DNA from: Nitrospirota bacterium
Lineage (GTDB): Bacteria; Nitrospirota; UBA9217
Direction of reading: 5' to 3'
Assembly (NCBI GenBank): GCA_963741205.1
Contig: CAVUHW010000006.1
Coordinates: forward strand, 101,206 to 165,205
DNA: 64,000 nucleotides
Shown here: positions 888 through 56,183 of the stretch, piece by piece
Position numbering within the stretch: position 1 is the stretch's first letter
How the letters are laid out: each line of letters opens with the position of its first letter
Position numbers and translations under genes: made by a program
Notes under the pieces: generated by a model
Told to the model about the DNA's origin: nothing
The model's input: the letters and a program-made list of their open reading frames with translations, nothing else
The model's database searches: none

Positions 888-3474
888 TACGGCCGCATCG
901 AAGAACATCCGCGTTCCGAATTGGACGCAAGGCTTGTTGATATTTTTTTTTGTCGTCTTAGCAATGTTCGGCGTTTCTATCTCCGCCAGCGCCGAACTAT
1001 CTGCCGGACAGCCTGTTGCCCCGCTTGCACCTAGGCTTGCCTCCGCGGCGTCGGGCGCATCGGCGCCGGAACCTGCCTCGAATTTTCCCCCACTCCAAAA
1101 AGAAACGACCCAGATTATCGTCGGCGTCTCCATCAACACGGAGGCCAAGGGAGATTTCTTTGTAGAACTGGACGAACAGGGCGAACTGTTCATAAGGGTA
1201 GACGACCTCATCGACCTGAAACTCGGGTTCGATCAGAACCGCACGGTGCTTATTCATAACGAAAAATACGCTCCGCTCAGCGCTGTTCGCGACATTAAAT
1301 ATACGTTCGACGAAAAAAAGCTGACCGTCGCCATCCTTGGTAAGACCACCGAAAAACGGCAAACAACCATAGACCTCTACCCGGCCCCGGCCAAGCCGCA
1401 GAATGTCTATTATCCCCGCGAAACCAGTGCCTTCGTTAATTACGGGCTCAATTATCTCTATACGAATTCCGCCGGCTTTCAGTCATTCTCCGTGACGAAC
1501 AAACTCGGGGCGAGGACCGGCGATGTTTTCTTTGTTTCCGATTCGCTTTATACGAAAACCGACTCCGGCAGTCAATTCGTGCGGCTTTCCAGCAATGCAA
1601 CCTACGAACGGCGGGACGACCTCCAATGGCTTGTCGTGGGAGACCAGTTTGCGAGTTCGGGTGATCTGGGCGGCACGGTCAATATCGGCGGCATCGGCTT
1701 TTCCAAGGTATACAAGCTGGACCCCTACTTTATCACCCAGCCGATGTTCAACCTCAGAGGGATCACGGCGTATCCTTCCCAGGCCGAGATCTACGTAGAC
1801 GGCGTCCTGGCGGGCAGACAGACGATTGCGCCGGGGTCATTCGAGCTCAAGAACATTTATTCCTACGCGGGGGCCCATAACGTCGATATTCTGCTCAAGG
1901 ATCCCTTCGGCAACGAGCAGCGCATTTTCTATCCCCTGTATTTCAACGTTCAATTGCTCAGGGAAGGTCTCCATGAATACAGTTACAACGCCGGGTTTTT
2001 GAGAGAACAGTTTGGGGTGAAGAGCAACGATTACGGGAAGCCGGCCTTTTCCGCGTTCCACCGTTACGGCGTTTCGAACTCCCTGAACATCGGGGCCCGG
2101 GCTGAAGGGACGGACGGCGTCTATAACGGCGGAGTTTCCACATCGTTTACGCTGCCCCGCACAGGTAGCTTTACCCTGGCTGCTGCCGCGAGCAGCGCGG
2201 GAAGTGAGCATGGCTCCGCGGGCTCCTTCCAACATTCCTATCAATTCGGCAGTTTCAATACGAACTTGCAAATAAGCGGCTTTTCGCGCGAATACTCTAC
2301 CGTCAGCGTCCCCGCATCCCCTGATATGACCAAATTCCTGGCGAGTCTGGGAGGAGGGTTTCTTGTATCTTCCCTGGGCGGCGTATCCGCCAATTATTTG
2401 GTTACCGAGACCTACCGAGGCGTTACTACGCGCGTCACATCAGCGTCCTATTCACGGGGGCTGACGAGAACAACCAGCCTCTTCGCGACCGCTTCGGCAA
2501 CTCGCGTCCAGGACACGACATACGGTTTTTTTATAGGCCTGAATTTCACCCCGAAAAACGATATCCACGGCGCCGTCCAGTATAACAAGACCGGCGGTAC
2601 GGATACGGAAACAGTTCAGATCCAAAAAGACACGCCCATCGGAGAGGGCGTGGGATATCGGGCCTCCCTCAGCCGCTCCGATGCGGGGGCATCGACCTCC
2701 TATGCGCTGGACCCCTCAATCCAGTATAATGCCAGGTACGGAATCTATTCTTTTGACGCCGTCCTCCAGAATTCCAGCGGCAACACGTCCGAAGCCTATA
2801 ACGTTTCCGCCGCCGGCTCGCTCGTGTACGCGGGCGGATTTTACGGCCTCTCGAGGCCGGTCAACGACAGCTTCGGCATCATCATGGTGGGCGAGGTGCC
2901 GAATGCGACGGTACTGAACAACGGCCAGGAAATCGGAAAGACTGATTCATCCGGCACGCTGGTCGTGCCGACGCTTACCTCCTACAGTCAAAATCAGATC
3001 ACGCTCGACATGAAAAATACGCCGATGGACTACAGTATTTCAGGTGTAAACGCGAAAATTGCTCCTTCGCTCTGGAGTGGTTCCTGCTTAGCGTTTGATG
3101 CGATCAAAGTGCGCTCCTTGGCGGGAAGCGTGTATGTGAAAAAAGATGATAAGAAAATCGCTCTGGAGTTCGTCGATATAACAATGAAAGTGGGTGAAAA
3201 AGAAGTGACGTTCCCAACAGGCAAGGGCGGGGAATTTTACATGGAAAATACCTTTGCGGATGATTCCAGCAAAGTCGCCGAGGATAAACTGAGCTGCCGG
3301 GCGATCGCTGAACGCAGGAAGACCGGCGGCAACTACATTCATCCCGGAAGCTATCACGCATGGGTTGACACGGAAGGCGGCAGATGCGAATTTGCCATTT
3401 CGTTCCCGGAGACGGAAGACGTGATTACCGACATTGGGGAAGTGCAGTGCATCATGAGAAAGGGAGCAAATTGA
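859..3474 (+). CDS. Fimbrial outer-membrane usher (CsuD-like); start uncertain
   Basis: About 870 aa, beta-strand rich; usher-like motifs PSQAEIYVDG, DPFGNEQ, LLREGLHEYSYNAG, GLSRPVNDSF; follows the chaperone. Confidence 0.85.
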   Translation: MFRKRCARSNTAASKNIRVPNWTQGLLIFFFVVLAMFGVSISASAELSAGQPVAPLAPRLASAASGASAPEPASNFPPLQKETTQIIVGVSINTEAKGDFFVELDEQGELFIRVDDLIDLKLGFDQNRTVLIHNEKYAPLSAVRDIKYTFDEKKLTVAILGKTTEKRQTTIDLYPAPAKPQNVYYPRETSAFVNYGLNYLYTNSAGFQSFSVTNKLGARTGDVFFVSDSLYTKTDSGSQFVRLSSNATYERRDDLQWLVVGDQFASSGDLGGTVNIGGIGFSKVYKLDPYFITQPMFNLRGITAYPSQAEIYVDGVLAGRQTIAPGSFELKNIYSYAGAHNVDILLKDPFGNEQRIFYPLYFNVQLLREGLHEYSYNAGFLREQFGVKSNDYGKPAFSAFHRYGVSNSLNIGARAEGTDGVYNGGVSTSFTLPRTGSFTLAAAASSAGSEHGSAGSFQHSYQFGSFNTNLQISGFSREYSTVSVPASPDMTKFLASLGGGFLVSSLGGVSANYLVTETYRGVTTRVTSASYSRGLTRTTSLFATASATRVQDTTYGFFIGLNFTPKNDIHGAVQYNKTGGTDTETVQIQKDTPIGEGVGYRASLSRSDAGASTSYALDPSIQYNARYGIYSFDAVLQNSSGNTSEAYNVSAAGSLVYAGGFYGLSRPVNDSFGIIMVGEVPNATVLNNGQEIGKTDSSGTLVVPTLTSYSQNQITLDMKNTPMDYSISGVNAKIAPSLWSGSCLAFDAIKVRSLAGSVYVKKDDKKIALEFVDITMKVGEKEVTFPTGKGGEFYMENTFADDSSKVAEDKLSCRAIAERRKTGGNYIHPGSYHAWVDTEGGRCEFAISFPETEDVITDIGEVQCIMRKGAN

Positions 3475-3705
3475 CGTCCTCCCCGGCCTGAAGGCCGAGC
3501 ATTCCAATGACTATCCTTGCCAGCTTCCGCTGCAAGAAAGCGGCAGAAATCCCGTAGTGTGACAGTAAGCGGCCCCTTAAGACCAGGGGAAACAATATTT
3601 CTGCCGTCTTGACTCAAAAAAGAGCTTCTCAACCTTCAGTCTCCTTAATCTCTCCATCCTTTTCAGGCGCCTCCGCTTCCCCGGGCTCATTAGCCGTATT
3701 TCTGA

Positions 3706-47271: not shown

Positions 47272-47406
47272 GCCCGAATACACGGGATAACTCCGGAATT
47301 TAGTGCATAATTTAGCGAGAGTTTGTCGTGAAAATCCTTAAAAATTACGGGGAAAGCGATACAAAACATTGCATGATGGACAGATTTCAATCTATCCTCT
47401 ATCATC

Positions 47407-47434
47407 TTGACAGTTCCTGATTATCGGGTAGACT
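47407..47434 (+). promoter_or_regulatory. Candidate sigma70 promoter of nap operon
   Basis: TTGACA-N16-TAGACT. Confidence 0.45.
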
Positions 47435-47502: not shown

Positions 47503-47605
47503 AACTTGATGATCCCGCAGGGTATGATCCTATCATACCTCGTTGATTTCAGGAACCTTTACAATAGGCGCATTTGGACGAGTGTTATATTCGGGAGGGG
47601 CAGCC

Positions 47606-50378
47606 ATGTCACTATCGAGAAGGGAATTCATGAAGACGACGGCGGCCGTTGCTGCCGCAACGGCGGTCGGGATGGCGGTGCCGGAAAAACTGCTCGCTGC
47701 CGCAAAGGAGGCCGAGGCGGGCTGGAGATGGGACAAATCCGTGTGCCGCTTCTGCGGAACAGGGTGCGGCATCATGGTGGCGACCAGGAACGACCGAATC
47801 GTGGCCGTGAAGGGCGACCCCGCTGCGCCGGTCAACATGGGCCTGAACTGCATCAAGGGCTACTTCAACGCCAAGATCATCTACGGCGCCGACCGGCTTA
47901 CCGAGCCGCTCATGCGCGTCAACGATAAAGGCGAGTTCGACAAGAAGGGCAAGTTCAAACCCGTTACGTGGAAAAAGGCCTTCGATGAGATGGCGAAGCA
48001 GTTTAAGAAATACTACAACCAACTCGGTCCTTCCGGCGTTGCCGTCTTCGGTTCCGGCCAGTATACCATCATGGAAGGCTACGCAGCCGCGAAGCTCATG
48101 AAGGCGGGCTTCCGTTCGAACAATATCGACCCGAACGCGAGACTGTGCATGGCCAGCGCCGTGGCCGGATTCATGGAGACCTTCGGCATCGACGAACCGG
48201 CCGGAAACTACGACGACATGCACTACTCCGACACGATCGTGCTCTGGGGCGCGAACATGGCGGAGGCGCACCCCGTGCTCTGGTCTAAAATCACCGACCG
48301 GAAGCTCGCGGACGCGAAACGGGTCAAGGTGGTGAACCTCACGACCTTTTCGAACCGGTGCTCGAACATCGCGGACATCGAGATCGTCATGAAACCGAAC
48401 ACCGACCTTGCAATCCAAAACTACATCCTCCGGGAGATCGTGTACAACCGGCCCCAGTGCATCGACTGGGACTTCGTGAATCAGAACTGCGTGTTCGCCA
48501 CCGGGTACGTGGATATCGGATACGGACTGAGGCCCAAGATCGACCATCCGAAGTACAAGAAGGAAGAGCTCGATACGGCGAGCAGGGAAGCCTTCAAGAT
48601 TATTACCAAGGACGAGGCCGCTGCCATGGCCACCCTGGGCTGCCAGGAGGGCGGCAAGATGGAGATGAAAAACGCGGCCAAGGCCGGCGTTCACTGGGCC
48701 ATCAGTTTCGAGGACTTTAAGAAGGGGCTTGAACCCTATACCCTCGACTTCGTGGCCGCTCTTGCCAAAGGCGACTCCTCGGAGCCGCTCGATGAGTTCA
48801 AGAAGAAGCTCGTCGCTCTCGCCGACCTCTACACGGAGAAGGACCGGAAGGTCGTGAGCTTCTGGACCATGGGCTTCAACCAGCATGTGCGCGGTACGTG
48901 GGTAAACGAACAGAATTACGCGATCCACCTCCTTCTCGGCAAACAATCCCAGCCCGGCAACGGCGGATTCAGCCTCACGGGCCAGCCTTCGGCCTGCGGC
49001 ACGGCGCGCGAGGTGGGGACTTTCTGCCACCGTCTCCCCGCGGACATGGTCGTGGCGAACCCGAAGCACCGGGCGGTTACCGAGAAGATCTGGAAGATCC
49101 CCGAGGGGACCTTGAACCCCGTCATGGGCTCGCACTTCATGAAGATCATGCGGGACCTCGAGGACGGTACGGTCAGGTGGGCGTGGGTGCAGGTGAACAA
49201 CCCCTGGCAGAACGCGTCGAACGCCAACCACTGGATCGCCGCGGCCCGCGAGATGGACAACTTCATTGTCGTCTCCGACGCATACCCGAGTATCTCGGCC
49301 AAGGTCGCGGACCTGATCCTGCCCGCTGCGATGATTTTCGAAAAGTGGGGGGCTTATGGAAACGCCGAGCGCCGCACCCAGCACTGGCGGCAGCAGGTGA
49401 CCCCGATCGGGAACTCCATGTCGGACACGTGGCAGACGGTCGAGTTCTCGAAGCGCTTCACCCTGGCAGAGGTGTGGAAGGAATGGAAGATCGACGAAAA
49501 GACCACACTGCCGGACGTCATCGGGAAAGCCCGCGATATGGGCTACACCGAGAAGACACGCTCTTTGACGTCCTGTTTGCCAACAAGGAGGCGCAGGGAT
49601 ATAAGTGGCCGGACCCGGTAGGGGCCGGGTTCCTGAACAGCGAGGCTGCAGGGGACAAGCGGAAGGTTGAAGGCTTTAAAGGATATGGTTTTTTCCTTCA
49701 GAAATACCTGTGGGAGGAGTACCGGAAGTTCGGCCTGGGCCACGGCCACGACCTTGCTGATTTCGACACCTACCACAAGGTTAGGGGCCTTCGCTGGCCG
49801 GTCGTGGACGGGAAGGAAACGCTGCTGGCGGTTTAATGCCGAGTACGACCCCTATGCGAAGGCGGCGAACCACGGCAAATTCGCCTTCTACGGAGACGCC
49901 ATGAAGGAGATCCCGAAGGGAGACCTTACGGGACCGAAGGGTGAGGAGAAGGTCAAACTTCCGAACCAGGCCAAGATCTTCCTGCGCCACTATATCGACC
50001 CGCCGGAAATACCGAGCGCTGATTATCCGCTCTGGCTTCAGACCGGCAGGGTGCTCGAACATTGGCATACGGGGACCATGACCATGCGCGTGCCTGAATT
50101 GTACCGGGCGGTTCCCGAGGCGCAGTGCTTCATGAATCCCGAAGGACGCGCAGGAAAGCAGCGTCAAGGACGGTGATTTGGTCTGGATCGAGTCCCGGCG
50201 CGGCAAGGTGAAGGCGCGGGTAGAGACCCGCGGCAGGAACCTGCCGCCCAAGGGCCTCATCTTCGTGCCCTTCTTCGACGAGCAGGTCCTGATCAACAAA
50301 GTGACGCTCGATGCCACGTGCCCGATCTCGAAGGAACCGGATTTCAAGAAGTGCGCGGTGAAGATTTATAAGGCATAG
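47606..50378 (+). CDS. napA: Periplasmic nitrate reductase catalytic subunit (frameshifts near 49555, 49825, 50140)
   Basis: Tat [15 protein letters not shown]...C 4Fe-4[10 protein letters not shown] (Mo ligand Cys), [47 protein letters not shown]. Confidence 0.97.
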
Positions 50379-50540: not shown

Positions 50541-51311
50541 GTGTTGCGGAGAAACTTCATAAAAAGCCTCGGTCTCGCTTCTCTCGGCGGCCTGATCTGG
50601 TCAAGTTTCCTGTCCAGCAGGCAGGCGTATCCCATGATCCTGAGACCGCCGGGCGCGGTTGCGGAAGAAAAGTTTCTCGCACGGTGCACGAAGTGCGGCC
50701 TCTGCGTTGATGCTTGTCCGTATCAGATCGCTTTCGCTGGCGAGGCCTGGCGACGGCCAGCCGGTTGGAACGCCATTCTTCTCCATGAGGGAAAATCCCT
50801 GCAGGATGTGCCGGGACATCCCCTGCGCAGCCGCATGCCCCACCCGCGCGCTCGATGTAAGCCTCGTGAGCGACAAGGGCGGCGACGACAGGCCGGTCTC
50901 AATATCAACAAGGCCATGATCGGGCTTGCCGTGATCGACCGGGAGACCTGCATCGCCTATTGGGGCATCCAGTGCGATGCCTGCTACCGGACATGCCCGC
51001 TCATTGACAAGGCGATCACGGTCGAGTATGCGCGAAATGACCGCACCGGAAAGCATGCCATTCTCGCTCCGGTCGTCCACAGCGAGCACTGCACAGGCTG
51101 CGGAATGTGCGAGCATGCATGCGTGACGAAGAAGGCCTCGATCCTCGTTCTTCCGCGCGGGCTCGCCCAGGGGGAATCCAGCGACCGGTACGTCAGAGGC
51201 TGGAAAGAAGAGGATGAGAAGCGGATCGGGGAGGCCCCGGAGGAGACCAGGACCGTAACACCCCGCAGTGAAAAGAACGCCCTCGATTACCTGAACCGGG
51301 AGGGTCTGTAA
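50541..51311 (+). CDS. napG: Ferredoxin-type quinol dehydrogenase subunit (two compensating shifts)
   Basis: RRNF Tat-like leader, LRPPGA, CTKCGLCVDACPY, PC.MC.DIPC...CPT (alternate frame), CDACYRTCP, CTGCGMCEHAC. Confidence 0.92.
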   Translation: MLRRNFIKSLGLASLGGLIWSSFLSSRQAYPMILRPPGAVAEEKFLARCTKCGLCVDACPYQIAFAGEAWRRPAGWNAILLHEGKSLQDVPGHPLRSRMPHPRARCKPRERQGRRRQAGLNINKAMIGLAVIDRETCIAYWGIQCDACYRTCPLIDKAITVEYARNDRTGKHAILAPVVHSEHCTGCGMCEHACVTKKASILVLPRGLAQGESSDRYVRGWKEEDEKRIGEAPEETRTVTPRSEKNALDYLNREGL

Positions 51312-51312
51312 G

Positions 51313-52149
51313 ATGCTGTGGATGCGGATGAACAGGTATCTCATCCTCAGGCGGTCAGTCCAGGTTTCGGTCCTGCTCCTGTTCATGGCGGGCCATTCTT
51401 GGGGCTGGAAGGCTCTCCAAGGGAACCTGAGCTCGTCCCGGATTCTGGGAACAATCCCGCTCGCAGACCCTTACGCCCTTCTCCAGACGGCATTTACCGG
51501 CACGCTGGTTGCCTCGGAGGCCCTGCTGGGGGGCGCTCTTGTGGTCGCTTTATTTGCACTTCTGGGCGGACGCGTGTTCTGCGGGTGGGTCTGCCCGATG
51601 AATGTTGTGACTGATTTCGCGGAGAGCGTGAGGAGAGCCGCCGGGACAAAGATTACCATGCCCTCCCCAACATTGAGCGGGAACGCGCGCTACTGGGCAT
51701 TGGGGCTGGGTCTTATCCTTTCATCCATCCTCGGCATCGCGGCCTTCGAGTGGATCAGTCCCGTTTCCGCCCTGCACCGAGGAATTATCTACGGCATGGG
51801 CGCCGGCTGGACGCTTGTTGCCGCCGTTTTCCTGTTCGATCTGTTCGTGCTCAGGCATGGGTTCTGCGGTCATCTTTGCCCGCTCGGCGGATTTTACGCT
51901 CTTATCGGCAGAGCCGGCATCTTGCGGGTCAGACATAGCGAGGAACGGTGCAGCCGCTGCATGGAGTGCGTGGAGCGCTGTCCGGAGCCGCAGGTACTGC
52001 CCATGGTCGGCAAAGAAAGCGGGTTCGTCACATCGGGGGAGTGCACCAGCTGCGGCAGATGCATCGACGTCTGCCCGGATCGTGCAATGCAATACGGCTT
52101 ACGGCTTTACAGCAGCACGCCTCGAAATGCAAAGGAGGTCAAATCATGA
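51313..52149 (+). CDS. napH: Membrane quinol dehydrogenase subunit
   Basis: GNLSSS, LADP, GGRVFCGWVCP, FEWISP, CGHLCPLG, two CxxCxxCxxxCP. Confidence 0.95.
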   Translation: MLWMRMNRYLILRRSVQVSVLLLFMAGHSWGWKALQGNLSSSRILGTIPLADPYALLQTAFTGTLVASEALLGGALVVALFALLGGRVFCGWVCPMNVVTDFAESVRRAAGTKITMPSPTLSGNARYWALGLGLILSSILGIAAFEWISPVSALHRGIIYGMGAGWTLVAAVFLFDLFVLRHGFCGHLCPLGGFYALIGRAGILRVRHSEERCSRCMECVERCPEPQVLPMVGKESGFVTSGECTSCGRCIDVCPDRAMQYGLRLYSSTPRNAKEVKS

Positions 52150-52694
52150 ACTGCCTACACATGGTCACCAGGTTGGTCTTCGGCATGGCGCTCGTGGTCG
52201 CCCTTGCCGCGGCAGGAGCGTCGGCTGCCGATAAGGCGAAAAGCGAGGATGAACTCGGCATCCGGAAGCAGTCTCTCACCGACGAGTCCAAGGTGCAGCC
52301 CGCGCATGGAGAGTACGGCAAGGCGGAGCCCGGCAAGAGCAAACCGCTCGGCAGGGCCTTCGAAAACAGCCCGCCGCTCATTCCTCACGACCTGACCGGC
52401 ATGCTGCCCATCGCCCAGACGAACAACATCTGCCTGAGCTGCCACATGCCGGAGCATGCACAAGCTCTCGGCGCGACTTCCCTGCCGAAGTCCCATTTCT
52501 TCGATATGGACACCGGCAAGGACCTTGCGGGGGTGCTGGACGGCAAACGGTACAACTGCATGCAGTGTCATGTCCCGCAGGTCAACATCCCCGAACCCAT
52601 TAAGAACACCTTCAAGGCCGATTTCCGGGCCAAAAAGTCGAAGACGAGTTCGAACCTGCTCGAAACATTGAATGAAGGAGTGAAGGCGGACTAA
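52146..52694 (+). CDS. napB: Di-heme cytochrome c subunit of Nap
   Basis: Signal peptide, RAFENSPPLIPH, CLSCH, SHF, RYNCMQCHVPQ. Confidence 0.95.
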   Translation: MNCLHMVTRLVFGMALVVALAAAGASAADKAKSEDELGIRKQSLTDESKVQPAHGEYGKAEPGKSKPLGRAFENSPPLIPHDLTGMLPIAQTNNICLSCHMPEHAQALGATSLPKSHFFDMDTGKDLAGVLDGKRYNCMQCHVPQVNIPEPIKNTFKADFRAKKSKTSSNLLETLNEGVKAD

Positions 52695-52695
52695 C

Positions 52696-52992
52696 ATGAA
52701 CGTATCGAGCCACGTGATAAAGGTCGCTCCGGAAAACCTGGAGACGGCCGTGGATTCGCTGAAGCAGTCGGGGCTGTGCGACGTCTTTTTCCACGATCCA
52801 CAGGGGACGATCGTCGTGACGATCGAAGGCAAGGACGTCGGCGAGGAGATGGACAAAATGAGGGCGATCCAGAAGCTGCCTTTTGTCCTATCAGCAGCCC
52901 TTGCTTATTGCTACAACGAAACCGAGCTGCATGAGGCGGCGGTGACGTCCCTGCGTGACGGCGCCGTGCCCGATGCCCTGAAGGGAGAGTGA
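52696..52992 (+). CDS. napD: NapA signal-peptide chaperone
   Basis: MNVSS.VI, G.IVVTIEG, I..LP.VLSA.L.Y. Confidence 0.9.
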   Translation: MNVSSHVIKVAPENLETAVDSLKQSGLCDVFFHDPQGTIVVTIEGKDVGEEMDKMRAIQKLPFVLSAALAYCYNETELHEAAVTSLRDGAVPDALKGE

Positions 52993-53999
52993 TGGACGGA
53001 CACGTTCATGAAACGGCGAGGCAGGACGGTGACAGAGCCGGGTTCGAGGACCTTCTCAGGGAATCAGCGCGTCTGCACGGGCACTTGTGCGCGGGCCAGG
53101 TGCTCGGCGCGCGTATGGCGGTCCTCGGCCTCCGGGAGGCCGGCATCAGCGATCCCCGGGGCGCCGACCGCAAGAACGTCATGGTGTTCGTCGAGATGGA
53201 CCGGTGCGCCGCCGATGCCATCCAGTCCTTAACGGGTTGCACCCTCGGAAAAAGAACACTCAAGTTCCTTGATTACGGCAAGATGGCTGCGACCTTTGTC
53301 AATCTTCAAACAGACAAAGCCGTCCGGGTCGTGGCAAGGGACGACGCGCGGGAAAAGGCCAGGCAGCACATCCCTGGCATTGAGGACAAATACGCAGCTC
53401 AAATCGAAGCGTACAAGATCATGGATGACCGGGATTTGTTCCATGTTCAGAACGTCAGCGTGCAAGTCAGGCCCGAGGACATGCCGGGCAAGCCGCTCAG
53501 GAGAACGCAATGCAGTGTCTGCCGCGAATATGTTCAGGATATGCGGGAGGTCGTCCGAAATGGTGAAGTTTTTTGCAGACCTTGCGCAGAGGGTGGCTAT
53601 TATTCGGGCCAGGATTTATTTAAACGGTCCGTTATGCAAAATAGTCATAACGCTCTGGAGGTCCGGTCCAAGGTTTGGATAGAATCAGACGGAGAGCCGG
53701 TTTTCGGCCGAGGCAGGCTTTTTCTGCTCGAAGCGATCGATACCCACGGATCGATCAACCGCGCCGCCGCTGAGGTCAACATCTCCTTTCGCAAGGCCTG
53801 GAGCCATGTCAAGGCCATGGAGGAGCGGCTCGGCATCAAACTGGTGGAGCGCCACGCAGGCGGGAAGAACGGTGGCGGCGCAGTCCTGACGAGCGACGCG
53901 CGGGAGTTCCTGAACAGGTACCGAACGATCGATGAAAGCGTCAGGCATGTTGTTGACAACAATTTCAGGAACATCTTCGGAAGCGGACAGCGTAGTTGA
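52989..53999 (+). CDS. FmdE-family domain plus Zn ribbon fused to ModE-type winged-helix domain
   Basis: HGHLCAGQVLG, DRCAADAIQ..GCTLGKR, CSVC..CRPC; then SKVWIE..GEPVFGRGR..LLEAI..GSIN.AA..SFRKAW..GG..GGGA.LT. Confidence 0.88.
   Translation: MMDGHVHETARQDGDRAGFEDLLRESARLHGHLCAGQVLGARMAVLGLREAGISDPRGADRKNVMVFVEMDRCAADAIQSLTGCTLGKRTLKFLDYGKMAATFVNLQTDKAVRVVARDDAREKARQHIPGIEDKYAAQIEAYKIMDDRDLFHVQNVSVQVRPEDMPGKPLRRTQCSVCREYVQDMREVVRNGEVFCRPCAEGGYYSGQDLFKRSVMQNSHNALEVRSKVWIESDGEPVFGRGRLFLLEAIDTHGSINRAAAEVNISFRKAWSHVKAMEERLGIKLVERHAGGKNGGGAVLTSDAREFLNRYRTIDESVRHVVDNNFRNIFGSGQRS
53630..53652. promoter_or_regulatory. ModE-box-like perfect palindrome inside fmdE-modE
   Basis: CGTTATG-CAAAATAGT-CATAACG in an AT-rich linker, overlapping an in-frame ATG at the start of the wHTH domain. 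Confidence 0.6.
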
Positions 54000-54048: not shown

Positions 54049-55227
54049 ATGTGCGATGATTCCAGCGTTGAACGGGACGAACACGGGGTGATGATGACTG
54101 TACCAGTGGCCGATGCCGTCGGCATGGTCCTCGCCCATGACATCACAGAAATCCGCAGGGACGAGTTTAAGGGGGCCGCGTTCAAAAAGGGGCACGTCAT
54201 CCGCGTCGAAGACGTTACGCATCTGAAGCGGCTGGGCAAAGAGCGACTGTTCGTCCTCTCCATCGCCCCGGATGAGATGCATGAGGACGACGCGGCGGCG
54301 GCGCTCGCCTCGGCGCTCATGGGAAAGGGCGTCAGGGCCGAAGGGGGGCCGCGGGAAGGGAAAATAAATATCGTCGCCGAAACGGACGGGCTCCTCAGGG
54401 TAAACCGGGAGGCGCTCCTTTCCCTGAATATGCTGGGCGACGTCATGTGCGCGTCGCGCCATGGGAACACGCTGGTGAGAACGGGGCGGGTCGTGGCCGG
54501 GACGAGGGCGATCCCGCTCGTTGTGAAGCGCGAGGTGATCGCTGCTGCGGTAGCCATCTGCGAGGACGCCAGGAAATCGGGGGCCGCGGTCATCGAGGTA
54601 GCCGGTCTTCGAAAGCCCAGGGCCGGGGTCGTTATCACGGGCAACGAAGTCTATCACGGAAGAATCAAAGACGCTTTTGCGCCGGTCATCACGAAGAAGA
54701 TCGAGGCCTTCGGCGGCGAGATCGTCGGGCTCTACTATGCGCCCGATGACGCAGTGTTCATTGAACAGCGCCTGCGCGAGCTCCGGGGCGCCGGGGCTGA
54801 CCTGCTGATCACGACCGGCGGCATGTCCGTGGACCCCGACGACGTTACGAGGTTCGCCATCCGCAACCTCGGCGCCATTGACGTTACCTACGGCGCGGCA
54901 GTGCTGCCGGGGGCGATGTTTCTGGTGGGGTACCTTGAAAAAGAGCGACACGGCGACGCGGAGACGCAGAGACGCGGAGATGAAAAAATTAAAGAAGAGG
55001 ACAAAGTTGGTTTGTCGCCGCGTCCCCCCATCCCCCCCTCTCCCATTCCGATTTTAGGCATTCCCGCCTGTGGCATGTATCATGCCGTTACGGTCCTCGA
55101 CCTGGTCCTCCCGCGGGTTCTCACGGGTGAGAAGATCGGCAGGAAGGAACTGGCCGAACTTGGCTACGGCGGCCTCTGCCTCCACTGCAAGGAATGCCGC
55201 TACCCGGTCTGTCCCTTCGGAAAGTGA
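54049..55227 (+). CDS. MoeA-like molybdopterin-binding protein with in-frame repeat insertion
   Basis: AVGMVLAHDITEI, AFKKGH, EGK, TGNEVY.G.I.D.F, TGGMSVDPDD.T, YG..VLPGAMF, G.PAC, GGLCLHC..C.YP.C.FGK. Confidence 0.88.
   Translation: MCDDSSVERDEHGVMMTVPVADAVGMVLAHDITEIRRDEFKGAAFKKGHVIRVEDVTHLKRLGKERLFVLSIAPDEMHEDDAAAALASALMGKGVRAEGGPREGKINIVAETDGLLRVNREALLSLNMLGDVMCASRHGNTLVRTGRVVAGTRAIPLVVKREVIAAAVAICEDARKSGAAVIEVAGLRKPRAGVVITGNEVYHGRIKDAFAPVITKKIEAFGGEIVGLYYAPDDAVFIEQRLRELRGAGADLLITTGGMSVDPDDVTRFAIRNLGAIDVTYGAAVLPGAMFLVGYLEKERHGDAETQRRGDEKIKEEDKVGLSPRPPIPPSPIPILGIPACGMYHAVTVLDLVLPRVLTGEKIGRKELAELGYGGLCLHCKECRYPVCPFGK
54947..55044. repeat. 8-mer tandem repeat palindrome (family G) inside coding sequence
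   Basis: GACACGGC GACGCGGA GACGCAGA GACGCGGA GA ... TCGCCGCGTCCCCCCATCCCCCCCTCTCCC. Confidence 0.75.
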
Positions 55228-55285: not shown

Positions 55286-56183
55286 ATGATGGTTCATCAG
55301 GTATGCTGCGGGATTCTCGGCTTGGTGCGGGATAATTTTCTCTGTGGATCAACGACGGTCTTGTTGTCCATCGCGATGCTTTTTACCGTGACAAGCGCCG
55401 CCCATGCCGAATGGTTTACCGAAGCTGACATCAGAGCGGTTTACGACGACAATGTCAATCTCGCTGCTAATAAGCAGAATCGTAAGAGCGACGCCTCCCT
55501 GCAGTCCTCTGCCTCGTTCGGGCATTACTCGCAGCTTGCCGATTCAACCGGTCTCGCCGTCTCTGCCGAGGCCAAGTACATCGACTTCGCCCGGTTCGGC
55601 GGACTGGACAATCTCGAAGCGGGTTTGACAGCTTCCATAAAGTATAAATGGGGACTGGGTTCGTATGCTCCATGGATCAGGGTTTTCGGATCGGCGAACG
55701 TACGCCGATTTTCGTGAAGATTTCAGGGACGGAGTATTCGGTCCGGACGGGACTTTCGCTGGGAAAGCGGATGAACGAGAGGATCTTCACGCAGATCGAA
55801 TATGAATATGACGAAAGCAGCGCCCGTAATTCGCGGTTCGACACGAGAAACAGCGCTGTTTCCGCGAGGATCGATTATCTTTTAACAGAATCGGTGCAGG
55901 TCGTGGATCGGCTATGCCTTGGGCAACGGCAAGTATGTGATATATACCCCCGTCAACCGTGCCCGCCCCACTGTTCCGGGCGCCGTCATCGTGGATACCT
56001 TTCAGGAGCCGATGCGCTCGCGTTCCAGCTGCCTGCCACTGCCCAGGTATTCTCTCTCGGCGCGAGTATAGCCCTGGCAAGGCACTGGTCCGCGGATATC
56101 AGCGCCGATTTTGCTGATATATACGGAAAGGGAGACACTATCCTGATTCAATCTATAGGGCGGGCATCGTCTATTCCTACTGA
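55286..56183 (+). CDS. Putative outer-membrane beta-barrel protein (frameshifted; start uncertain)
   Basis: Signal peptide ..SAAHA|EW, YDDNV motif, amphipathic strands; shifted C-terminus IYRAGIVYSY* ending in an aromatic residue. Confidence 0.65.

Follow-up and report, generated by a model that had tools for sequence, protein, structure and literature searches.

An FmdE domain joined to a ModE-type winged helix without TOBE domains: a recurrent gene fusion and candidate molybdenum/tungsten regulator in Nitrospirota

What does an FmdE domain do on the same polypeptide as a ModE-type DNA-binding domain? The question is raised by a gene that overlaps the end of napD in a 64,000-nucleotide stretch of a Nitrospirota genome (GCA_963741205.1, contig CAVUHW010000006.1, positions 101,206 to 165,205), hereafter the window, and it touches two problems that have each stood for about 20 years. 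One is how ModE domains without TOBE sense molybdenum: canonical ModE consists of a winged helix-turn-helix (wHTH) and two TOBE domains, and Rodionov et al. (2004), where single-domain ModE genes were noted in Desulfovibrio, called molybdenum sensing by the latter ‘not clear’ (PMC545781). The other is the function of FmdE, for which only structural-genomics structures exist, dating from 2010, without an assigned function and with zinc in the core site of the crystals (PMC2954224).

The gene is an open reading frame (ORF) of 336 codons on the plus strand, running from a GTG at 52989 that overlaps the napD stop codon TGA (52990–52992) to a stop at 53999. An ATG at 52992 is the likelier start, because it forms a TGATG overlap with napD, has GGAGAG just 5' of it and agrees with a 335-amino-acid database form of the same protein. 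The gene and its parts are:

52989–53999, plus strand: whole fused gene, probable start ATG 52992 (Pfam, NCBIfam, database copies)
53073–53441, plus strand: FmdE alpha+beta core, amino acids 29–151, with the metal site His30-x-His32-x-Cys34 ... Cys73 (Pfam, 2GVI alignment, Foldseek)
53505–53594, plus strand: four-cysteine treble-clef zinc finger of the long FmdE type (zf-dskA_traR, invariant cysteines, 2GVI finger)
53595–53669, plus strand: flexible linker, amino acids 203–227, whose Met216 aligns with the start codon of the separate wHTH gene in split homologues
53670–53984, plus strand: ModE-type wHTH, amino acids 228–332, without TOBE (TIGR00637, 2IJL/1B9M/1O7L, Foldseek)

The first-pass annotation had read this ORF as an FmdE domain joined to a ModE DNA-binding domain that lacks TOBE, upstream of a MoeA-like gene, and Pfam, NCBIfam and Foldseek all agree with that description. 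Pfam placed FmdE (PF02663) at amino acids 29–151 (E 1.6e-34; 119.3 bits against a cut-off of 22.9) and HTH_1 (PF00126) at amino acids 244–304 (E 2.9e-10; 40.4 bits against a cut-off of 26.6), with zf-dskA_traR at amino acids 173–202 slightly below its cut-off (E 6.6e-5; 23.3 bits against 24.9). TOBE had no Pfam match in the fused protein at E <= 0.01, and neither did a C-terminal LysR substrate-binding domain, the HTH itself being C-terminal. In NCBIfam, ModE_repress (TIGR00637) covered amino acids 240–326 (E 1.3e-23), and the full ModE model NF007957 aligned at its positions 21–93 of 263 only (46.1 bits against a cut-off of 369). A sequence search of the PDB returned 2IJL (E 2e-10), 2GVI (E 2.8e-10) and E. 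coli ModE 1B9M/1O7L (E 1.7e-8). An AlphaFold model made from 81 homologues (predicted local distance difference test, pLDDT, 77.7) consisted of two well-folded parts with a disordered stretch between them at amino acids 203–227 (pLDDT <50); Foldseek matched the N-terminal part to 2gvi (E 5.2e-12), 2glz and 3d00, and the C-terminal part to 1b9m (E 3.2e-6), 2ijl (E 4.2e-5; template modelling (TM) score 0.80 on the target) and LysR-type DNA-binding domains.

The functional residues of both parts are conserved. H30, H32, C34 and C73 align with His16, His18, Cys20 and Cys61 of 2GVI, the zinc ligands of its core (PMC2954224), and these four residues as well as D71, D76 and C84 do not vary in alignments of 17 and of 81 homologues. 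The finger cysteines C175, C178, C196 and C199 are likewise invariant in the 81 homologues and align with the 2GVI finger. In the PDB alignment the wHTH stretch ‘ISFRKAW...LVER..GGKNGGGAVLT’ pairs with ‘ISYKSAW...LVERATGGKGGGGAVLT’ of E. coli ModE, and the recognition-helix and wing motifs of ModE are kept across the 81 homologues. It is thus confirmed that the gene is real and encodes an FmdE core, a four-cysteine finger, a linker and a ModE-type winged helix, without TOBE.

Set beside known systems, the protein has the same winged helix as E. coli ModE (1B9M, 1O7L), including the conserved helix motif ‘SY(K/R)xAW’ and wing motif ‘GGxxGGGAxLT’, and, by context, a link to molybdenum metabolism; however, the wHTH of ModE is N-terminal and comes with TOBE/Mop, whereas here it is C-terminal and TOBE/Mop are lacking. 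With single-domain ModE proteins (A. tumefaciens 2IJL, the best PDB sequence match; Desulfovibrio) it shares a ModE wHTH without covalent TOBE, but here the wHTH is fused or translationally coupled to FmdE with its zinc finger (FmdE-Zn) and to a MoeA-like gene, which supplies a candidate sensing partner. Like FmdE proteins with a finger (2GVI, 3D00; 2GLZ has the core only), it has the core fold, the His2Cys2 site and the C-terminal treble-clef finger; unlike them, it carries an extra DNA-binding domain and has no link to formylmethanofuran dehydrogenase. No Fmd/Fwd subunits were found among the scanned genes of 32 related loci, and the window neighbours are napAGHBD and the MoeA-like gene; FmdE is, moreover, missing from the solved formylmethanofuran dehydrogenase complex (PMC11237513). 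Since it is without the defining TOBE of ModE and without the operon context of FmdE, the protein is a member of neither family as defined; it is a real, conserved, uncharacterised ModE variant. Database names of its relatives are ‘FmdE family protein’, ‘LysR family transcriptional regulator’ and ‘ModE-like’, and a cluster of 126 members in the ESM Atlas combines the two domains. We found no experimental study of an FmdE-ModE fusion in the literature accessible to us, which leaves most subscription journals outside its coverage. The only mention was in a 2024 catalogue of archaeal gene fusions and fissions, which lists FmdE with a transcriptional regulator in 3 Methanosaeta assemblies and whose authors suggest a regulatory role for FmdE (PMC11237513); these fusions are alike in joining FmdE to a regulator and are, in the accessible part of that source, a catalogue entry only. 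In the searchable text of the FmdE structure paper the terms ‘HTH’ and ‘fusion’ are absent, and the matches shown for ‘mode’ are other words (PMC2954224).

Is the fusion genuine? The worry that two separate genes were run together by an indel, in an assembly prone to errors, is fair, since frames are broken at many places in this assembly: in napA, in the cassette on contig C32 and in the cassette at the start of contig C6, the last two lying in pieces. Furthermore, split forms predominate in the genus of the window's own genome, and an A-run in the linker (CAAAAT, 53637–53642; in frame) is bridged by none of the public contigs from four runs that cover parts of the gene, all of them free of indels there. 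Against this, a protein from a Joint Genome Institute (JGI) metagenome, P0001, is 96% identical overall and identical over the whole linker, and P0001 and P0274, both from JGI metagenome contigs, share one 90% cluster with the window protein. Our reading of the sequence is, in addition, that one extra base would leave the wHTH without a usable start. All of the best 120 matches in a collection of 5.8 billion proteins contained both Pfam domains, in a ranking that favours full-length matches and was restricted to proteins of 184–588 amino acids. In a locus survey with one genome per species, the 80 loci with FmdE-Zn comprised 11 with a single ORF, 21 with adjacent genes, 1 with adjacent genes in reverse order and 47 without an adjacent wHTH, so that among the 32 species-level loci with both parts (FmdE first) 11 are fused and 21 split. 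Of 201 genomes sampled from the phylum, 101 gave a match: 7 besides the window's carry a fused, full-length and uninterrupted frame, 5 a frame with one or two internal stops, and more than 30 are split. Within family f1, 41 of the 44 genomes sampled carry the FmdE part. The architecture first described in the window is thus found in other genomes as well. On the strength of the near-identical metagenome proteins with the same linker and the 11 of 32 fused loci, we judge the fusion genuine but a minority state, and an assembly artefact extremely improbable. Homologues that are always separate genes, which the first-pass annotation had named as the result that would tell against it, were not what we saw: they are often separate (21/32) but fused in the remaining 11, and the linker is in frame and matched by P0001.

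A third module follows the fused gene at a distance of 49 bases:

54049–55227, plus strand: MoeA-like protein of 392 amino acids with MoCF_biosynth (Pfam)

FmdE-Zn, the wHTH and the MoeA-like protein have been joined, parted and reordered in several ways. In one split arrangement, seen in five genomes and in the window genome's own paralogue on contig C5, the FmdE gene ends in ‘..RYAEK*’ a few codons past the ATG of the wHTH gene, and the split wHTH starts at the methionine of ‘VMQ’ that corresponds to Met216 of the fused protein. Other split loci have short spacers, an in-frame TAG or a spacer of 260–400 nucleotides. Fusions in the reverse order, wHTH before FmdE-Zn, occur in P0153 and P0182, the latter in a cluster that includes a protein of a Thermoplasmatota archaeon, and in locus L039 the wHTH and FmdE are separate neighbouring genes in this same reverse order. 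L035 has a fusion of the wHTH with the MoeA-like protein, and FmdE-wHTH-MoeA-like triple fusions are present in L014, in P0121 and in the phylum genomes G163 and G184 (open frames of 698 and 647 amino acids). On a quick maximum-likelihood tree of 39 concatenated FmdE and wHTH rows, which is weakly resolved (6 of 36 inner branches starred), the fused or split state needs at least 6 changes, and fused–split sister pairs stand at 86 and 91 in the Shimodaira–Hasegawa-like approximate likelihood ratio test. Such repeated joining, parting and reordering is the classic mark of components working within a single complex. Together, the recurrent fusions, the reverse-order fusions and the adjacent, often overlapping split genes are good Rosetta-stone evidence that FmdE-Zn and the ModE wHTH work together.

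Several observations accompany these arrangements. We had considered the split paralogue on C5 a homopolymer error and dropped this explanation on finding the same overlap (‘..RYAEK*’ over ‘VMQK..’) in five other genomes, and protein P0257 was rejected as an FmdE-MoeA-like fusion. The in-frame TAG mentioned above is a single one (L017:8622–8624) that parts FmdE-Zn and wHTH in a Nitrospirae metagenome-assembled genome whose cassette also stands behind a nap operon. In four loci the spacer of 260–400 nucleotides between the FmdE-Zn and wHTH genes contains a conserved ORF of ~100 amino acids (‘..VPLNxFTQNYI..KGVLSPLKGIFW..’), which belongs to no Pfam family:

L019:1248–1625: ~100-amino-acid spacer ORF
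L025:3463–3837: ~100-amino-acid spacer ORF
L037:5651–5983: ~100-amino-acid spacer ORF
L040:8518–8862: ~100-amino-acid spacer ORF

If FmdE stands in for TOBE, is there still a canonical ModE beside it? In the window's genome (84% complete) no canonical ModE with wHTH and TOBE was found; the search turned up four ModE-type wHTH domains, all of them linked to FmdE, and TOBE was confined to a Mop-like ORF and a ModC-like tail. Among the 201 phylum genomes, likewise, nothing reached the ModE cut-off and nothing spanned wHTH and TOBE uninterrupted. Because no canonical ModE was found in these genomes and the FmdE-linked ModE-type regulator was, the fused regulator is the best candidate for the control of molybdenum and tungsten enzymes in Nitrospirota/Thermodesulfovibrionia, organisms of anaerobic sulfur and nitrogen cycling. 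The earlier proposal that FmdE replaces TOBE gains from this absence and from fusions that recur in either order; its further step, FmdE as the sensor, is plausible only. The phylum genomes also contain many free-standing ORFs of ~120–160 amino acids with a ModE wHTH only, which outscore the FmdE-linked ones, as well as free-standing di-TOBE ORFs; with no canonical ModE found, these ORFs suggest that members of the phylum generally sense in trans. The Mop-like ORF of the window's genome, 117 amino acids with a single TOBE, lies at C10:157377–157730 (L089 1435–1788), directly 3' of a MoaD-MoaE fusion gene.

The sequences show the domain make-up, conserved metal ligands and three modules that are repeatedly fused, split and kept in synteny. 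From these we infer DNA binding, a ligand, target genes and a coupling to demand, which could fit together as follows. The protein would be a dimeric ModE-family regulator in which a linker of ~25 residues tethers the winged helix to an FmdE module, with its His2Cys2 metal site and zinc finger, instead of to two TOBE domains, and it would form one working unit with the adjoining MoeA-like protein. FmdE, the MoeA-like protein or both would signal the status of molybdenum/tungsten or the pterin cofactor and thereby alter DNA binding by the winged helix. The cassette would be transcribed together with the molybdoenzyme operon at whose 3' end it lies (here napAGHBD), such that induction of the enzyme would bring more regulator and more of the cofactor-handling partner, coupling cofactor supply to demand. 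Judged by sequence and context, the fused protein probably ties gene expression to the supply of molybdenum/tungsten cofactor; that it does so as a ModE-type regulator receiving its signal via FmdE and/or the MoeA-like partner seems to us about evenly balanced. More tentatively, as a possibility we would not call likely, FmdE-Zn may be the missing sensor partner of TOBE-less ModE domains, forming with the cysteine-rich MoeA-like protein a three-part switch that reads the flux or occupancy of molybdenum/tungsten-pterin, not free molybdate, and that is delivered in cis with each molybdoenzyme operon to match enzyme induction to cofactor supply. If true, such a switch would be the first defined function of FmdE and an explanation of single-domain ModE sensing. 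By being fused, split and reordered time and again, FmdE-Zn, the ModE wHTH and the MoeA-like protein bring both long-standing questions together in a small, soluble and testable system.

Which partner would do the sensing? The MoeA-like gene is downstream in 29 of the 32 loci with both parts; the misses are L024 and two loci, L030 and L059, with less than 400 nucleotides of contig left. MoaA follows the MoeA-like gene in 7 of the 32, and in 2 the molybdate transporter MOT1 lies in between. The MoeA-like model (pLDDT 83.8) matched gephyrin E, Cnx1E and E. coli MoeA 1g8l in Foldseek (E 2e-7 to 1e-6), with matches that span ~400 columns at a TM score of only about 0.3. The protein does not show the four-domain architecture of MoeA above family cut-offs (30–36 bits against cut-offs of 440–560 in NCBIfam; MoCF_biosynth only in Pfam) and has a cysteine-rich tail in place of the C-terminus. 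This tail, ‘GIPACGMY...GHGGLCxxCxxCxYPVCPFGK’, has five cysteines that are invariant in 32 homologues (C341, C377, C380, C383, C388) and may form an iron-sulfur or molybdenum/tungsten-thiolate site. A Met-Cys at the N-terminus is near-invariant in the alignment of the window copy with 31 homologues; the window copy also has a proline-rich insert at amino acids ~300–330, which is poorly modelled.

The constancy of this partner and its fusions with the wHTH in L035, L014 and P0121 mean that the MoeA-like protein may be the sensing part. It could be the real sensor, binding molybdopterin or molybdenum/tungsten-pterin, with FmdE-Zn as a zinc-stabilised scaffold for dimerisation or docking that replaces dimerisation by TOBE. 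FmdE proteins with zinc fingers are indeed tightly intertwined dimers with zinc in the core site (PMC2954224), and among the 48 other loci there are 14 in which FmdE-Zn is likewise followed by the MoeA-like gene (one that has a wHTH upstream, and 13 of the 47 without an adjacent wHTH), which argues that the pair of FmdE and MoeA-like protein is older than the link to DNA binding. However, the reverse-order fusions P0153 and P0182 have no MoeA-like domain, and the invariance of the His2Cys2 site and of further aspartate and cysteine residues in 81 homologues goes beyond the needs of a scaffold; we consider a MoeA-like sensor with a purely structural FmdE unlikely.

The genomic context bears on what the proposed regulator would control. 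A molybdopterin-oxidoreductase operon lies upstream on the same strand in 15 of the 32 loci: Nap in 3 (plus the window), an FdhE-containing operon in 2, a dimethyl sulfoxide (DMSO)-reductase type with a TorD-like chaperone in 6 and others in 4; the other 17 have unrelated genes upstream. The specific tie to nap expression that the first-pass annotation had put forward found no support: cassettes stand behind Nap, Fdh and DMSO-reductase-type operons or alone, and no operator was found upstream of napA or elsewhere. The window's genome itself contains FmdE/ModE/MoeA-like cassettes at four separate places and, in addition, a divergent FmdE that stands alone; those outside the window are:

C5:59958–60915 with C6:2–1010: FmdE/ModE/MoeA-like cassette
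C3:17550–18807: FmdE/ModE/MoeA-like cassette
C32:13407–15420: FmdE/ModE/MoeA-like cassette
C20:284466–284732: lone FmdE

The start of C6 may directly continue the end of contig C5. It takes three frames to read the C32 cassette, and likewise the MoeA-like gene with which C6 starts.

Could the cassette be a device for cofactor maturation? FmdE and the MoeA-like protein would then insert or deliver molybdenum/tungsten-bis-molybdopterin guanine dinucleotide to the enzyme encoded upstream, and the wHTH would only autoregulate or anchor, with no metal-responsive control of enzyme genes. Such a role would suit the position of cassettes directly behind dedicated chaperones (NapD here, TorD-like Nitrate_red_del in 6 loci, FdhE in 2), the presence of one cassette for each of several molybdoenzyme operons in one genome, and the fusions of FmdE found elsewhere: among 28 other FmdE architectures scanned, 12 were fusions with MobB and 1 with a MobA-like domain, besides 2 with TrmO_N, 1 with HIT and 1 with DUF364/DUF4213. 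The DMSO-reductase-type operons with cassettes, moreover, seem to be already under a sigma-54 two-component control of their own (see below). Conservation of the ModE-type recognition helix through repeated fusion and fission nevertheless argues for a selected function in DNA binding, and 17 of the 32 loci lack a molybdoenzyme operon upstream; we think a maturation device rather improbable.

A regulator may also respond to a signal other than molybdenum or tungsten. His2Cys2 sites typically bind zinc or nickel. The FmdE site could accordingly sense zinc, nickel, iron, a thiol or redox signal, or sulfide, and report it to molybdoenzyme and cofactor genes. Besides the type of site and the fusions with TrmO_N, HIT and DUF364, this receives some encouragement from a ligand of undefined identity attached to the conserved cysteine in 2GVI (PMC2954224). 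The gene context of the clade, on the other hand, is uniformly one of molybdenum and tungsten (MoeA-like, MoaA, MOT1, MobB, molybdoenzymes), and we give this alternative little credence.

Returning to the ModE-type regulator with its signal via FmdE and/or the MoeA-like partner, a number of results weigh against it. The ModE_repress match scores 82.9 bits, below the curated cut-off of 98.5. Zinc in FmdE crystals and the TrmO_N, HIT and DUF364 fusions mean that the metal may be other than molybdenum or tungsten, and a genome with four paralogous cassettes can be explained by a local, enzyme-specific role no less well than by a global sensor. Operator searches add to this: the E. coli-type ModE box, ATCGNTATATA-N6-TATATANCGAT (PMC545781), is nowhere in the window; an inverted repeat in the napA leader (47521–47539), considered as an operator, has no conserved counterpart in related loci; enumerating exact dyads over 30 promoter sets yielded none above shuffles; and palindromic expectation-maximisation came out level with its shuffled controls or only just higher, with 135.8 and 140.5 on 20 cassette promoters against 124–134, and 96.7 and 104.7 on 12 operon promoters against 93–108. 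The search on the 12 operon promoters did bring out GTTAC-N6-GTAAC pairs, the one palindrome with clear conservation; considered as a ModE operator, they were rejected in favour of an enhancer of a sigma-54 activator, because a sigma-54 element lies behind each pair and NtrC-type activators adjoin them.

These palindromes are of interest in their own right. Pairs of TGTTAC-N6-GTAACA lie upstream of DMSO-reductase-type operons that end in a cassette, at five loci and on the window genome's own contig C5, with the two members 77–92 bp apart (125 bp in L037):

L009: pair at 3048/3125
L010: pair at 3588/3673
L020: pair at 342/434
L040: pair at 1927/2014
L037: pair at 212/337
C5: pair at 55662/55745

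TGTTAC-N6-GTAACA has 5 exact matches in 1.01 Mb of loci, every one of them in intergenic sequence, which makes up 9.3% of the bases, and a sigma-54-type -24/-12 element lies 3' of each pair. In each of the 3 loci scanned, genes for NtrC-type activators with HTH_8 adjoin the pairs; a histidine kinase with a Cache domain is also encoded beside them. The pairs probably mark an undescribed two-component sigma-54 regulon for DMSO-reductase-type enzymes.

The genes upstream of the fused gene in the window form a nap operon:

47543–50378, plus strand: napA, catalytic subunit of the periplasmic nitrate reductase and first gene of the operon (ORFs 47543–49621, 49667–50176 and 50178–50378)
50541–51311, plus strand: napG-like 4Fe-4S ferredoxin (Fer4 families; one-frame tblastn match to L012 NapG, 56% over 259 amino acids)
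51313–52149, plus strand: napH-like membrane 4Fe-4S protein (Fer4_5, E 4.8e-18, and dicluster domains)
52146–52694, plus strand: napB, dihaem cytochrome c (NapB PF03892, E 2.3e-32, amino acids 95–223 of ORF 51948–52694)
52696–52992, plus strand: napD chaperone, its stop overlapping the start of the fused gene (NapD PF03927, E 2.8e-20)

The likely start of napA is an ATG at 47606, ahead of a twin-arginine signal. At least three breaks interrupt its frame: a tblastn search with L017 NapA matched frames 2, 1, 2 and 3, changing near 49504–49546, 49811–49923 and 50139–50224, so that napA is either a pseudogene or affected by indel errors of the assembly. For napB, a stretch resembling a signal peptide points to a start near 52146, not at the listed GTG 51948. 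No riboswitch was found within the window. The napA leader contains, 3' of sigma-70-like promoter matches at 47377–47434, a perfect 8-bp inverted repeat, GGTATGAT-CCT-ATCATACC (47521–47539), which may form a hairpin in the RNA or serve as a local operator.

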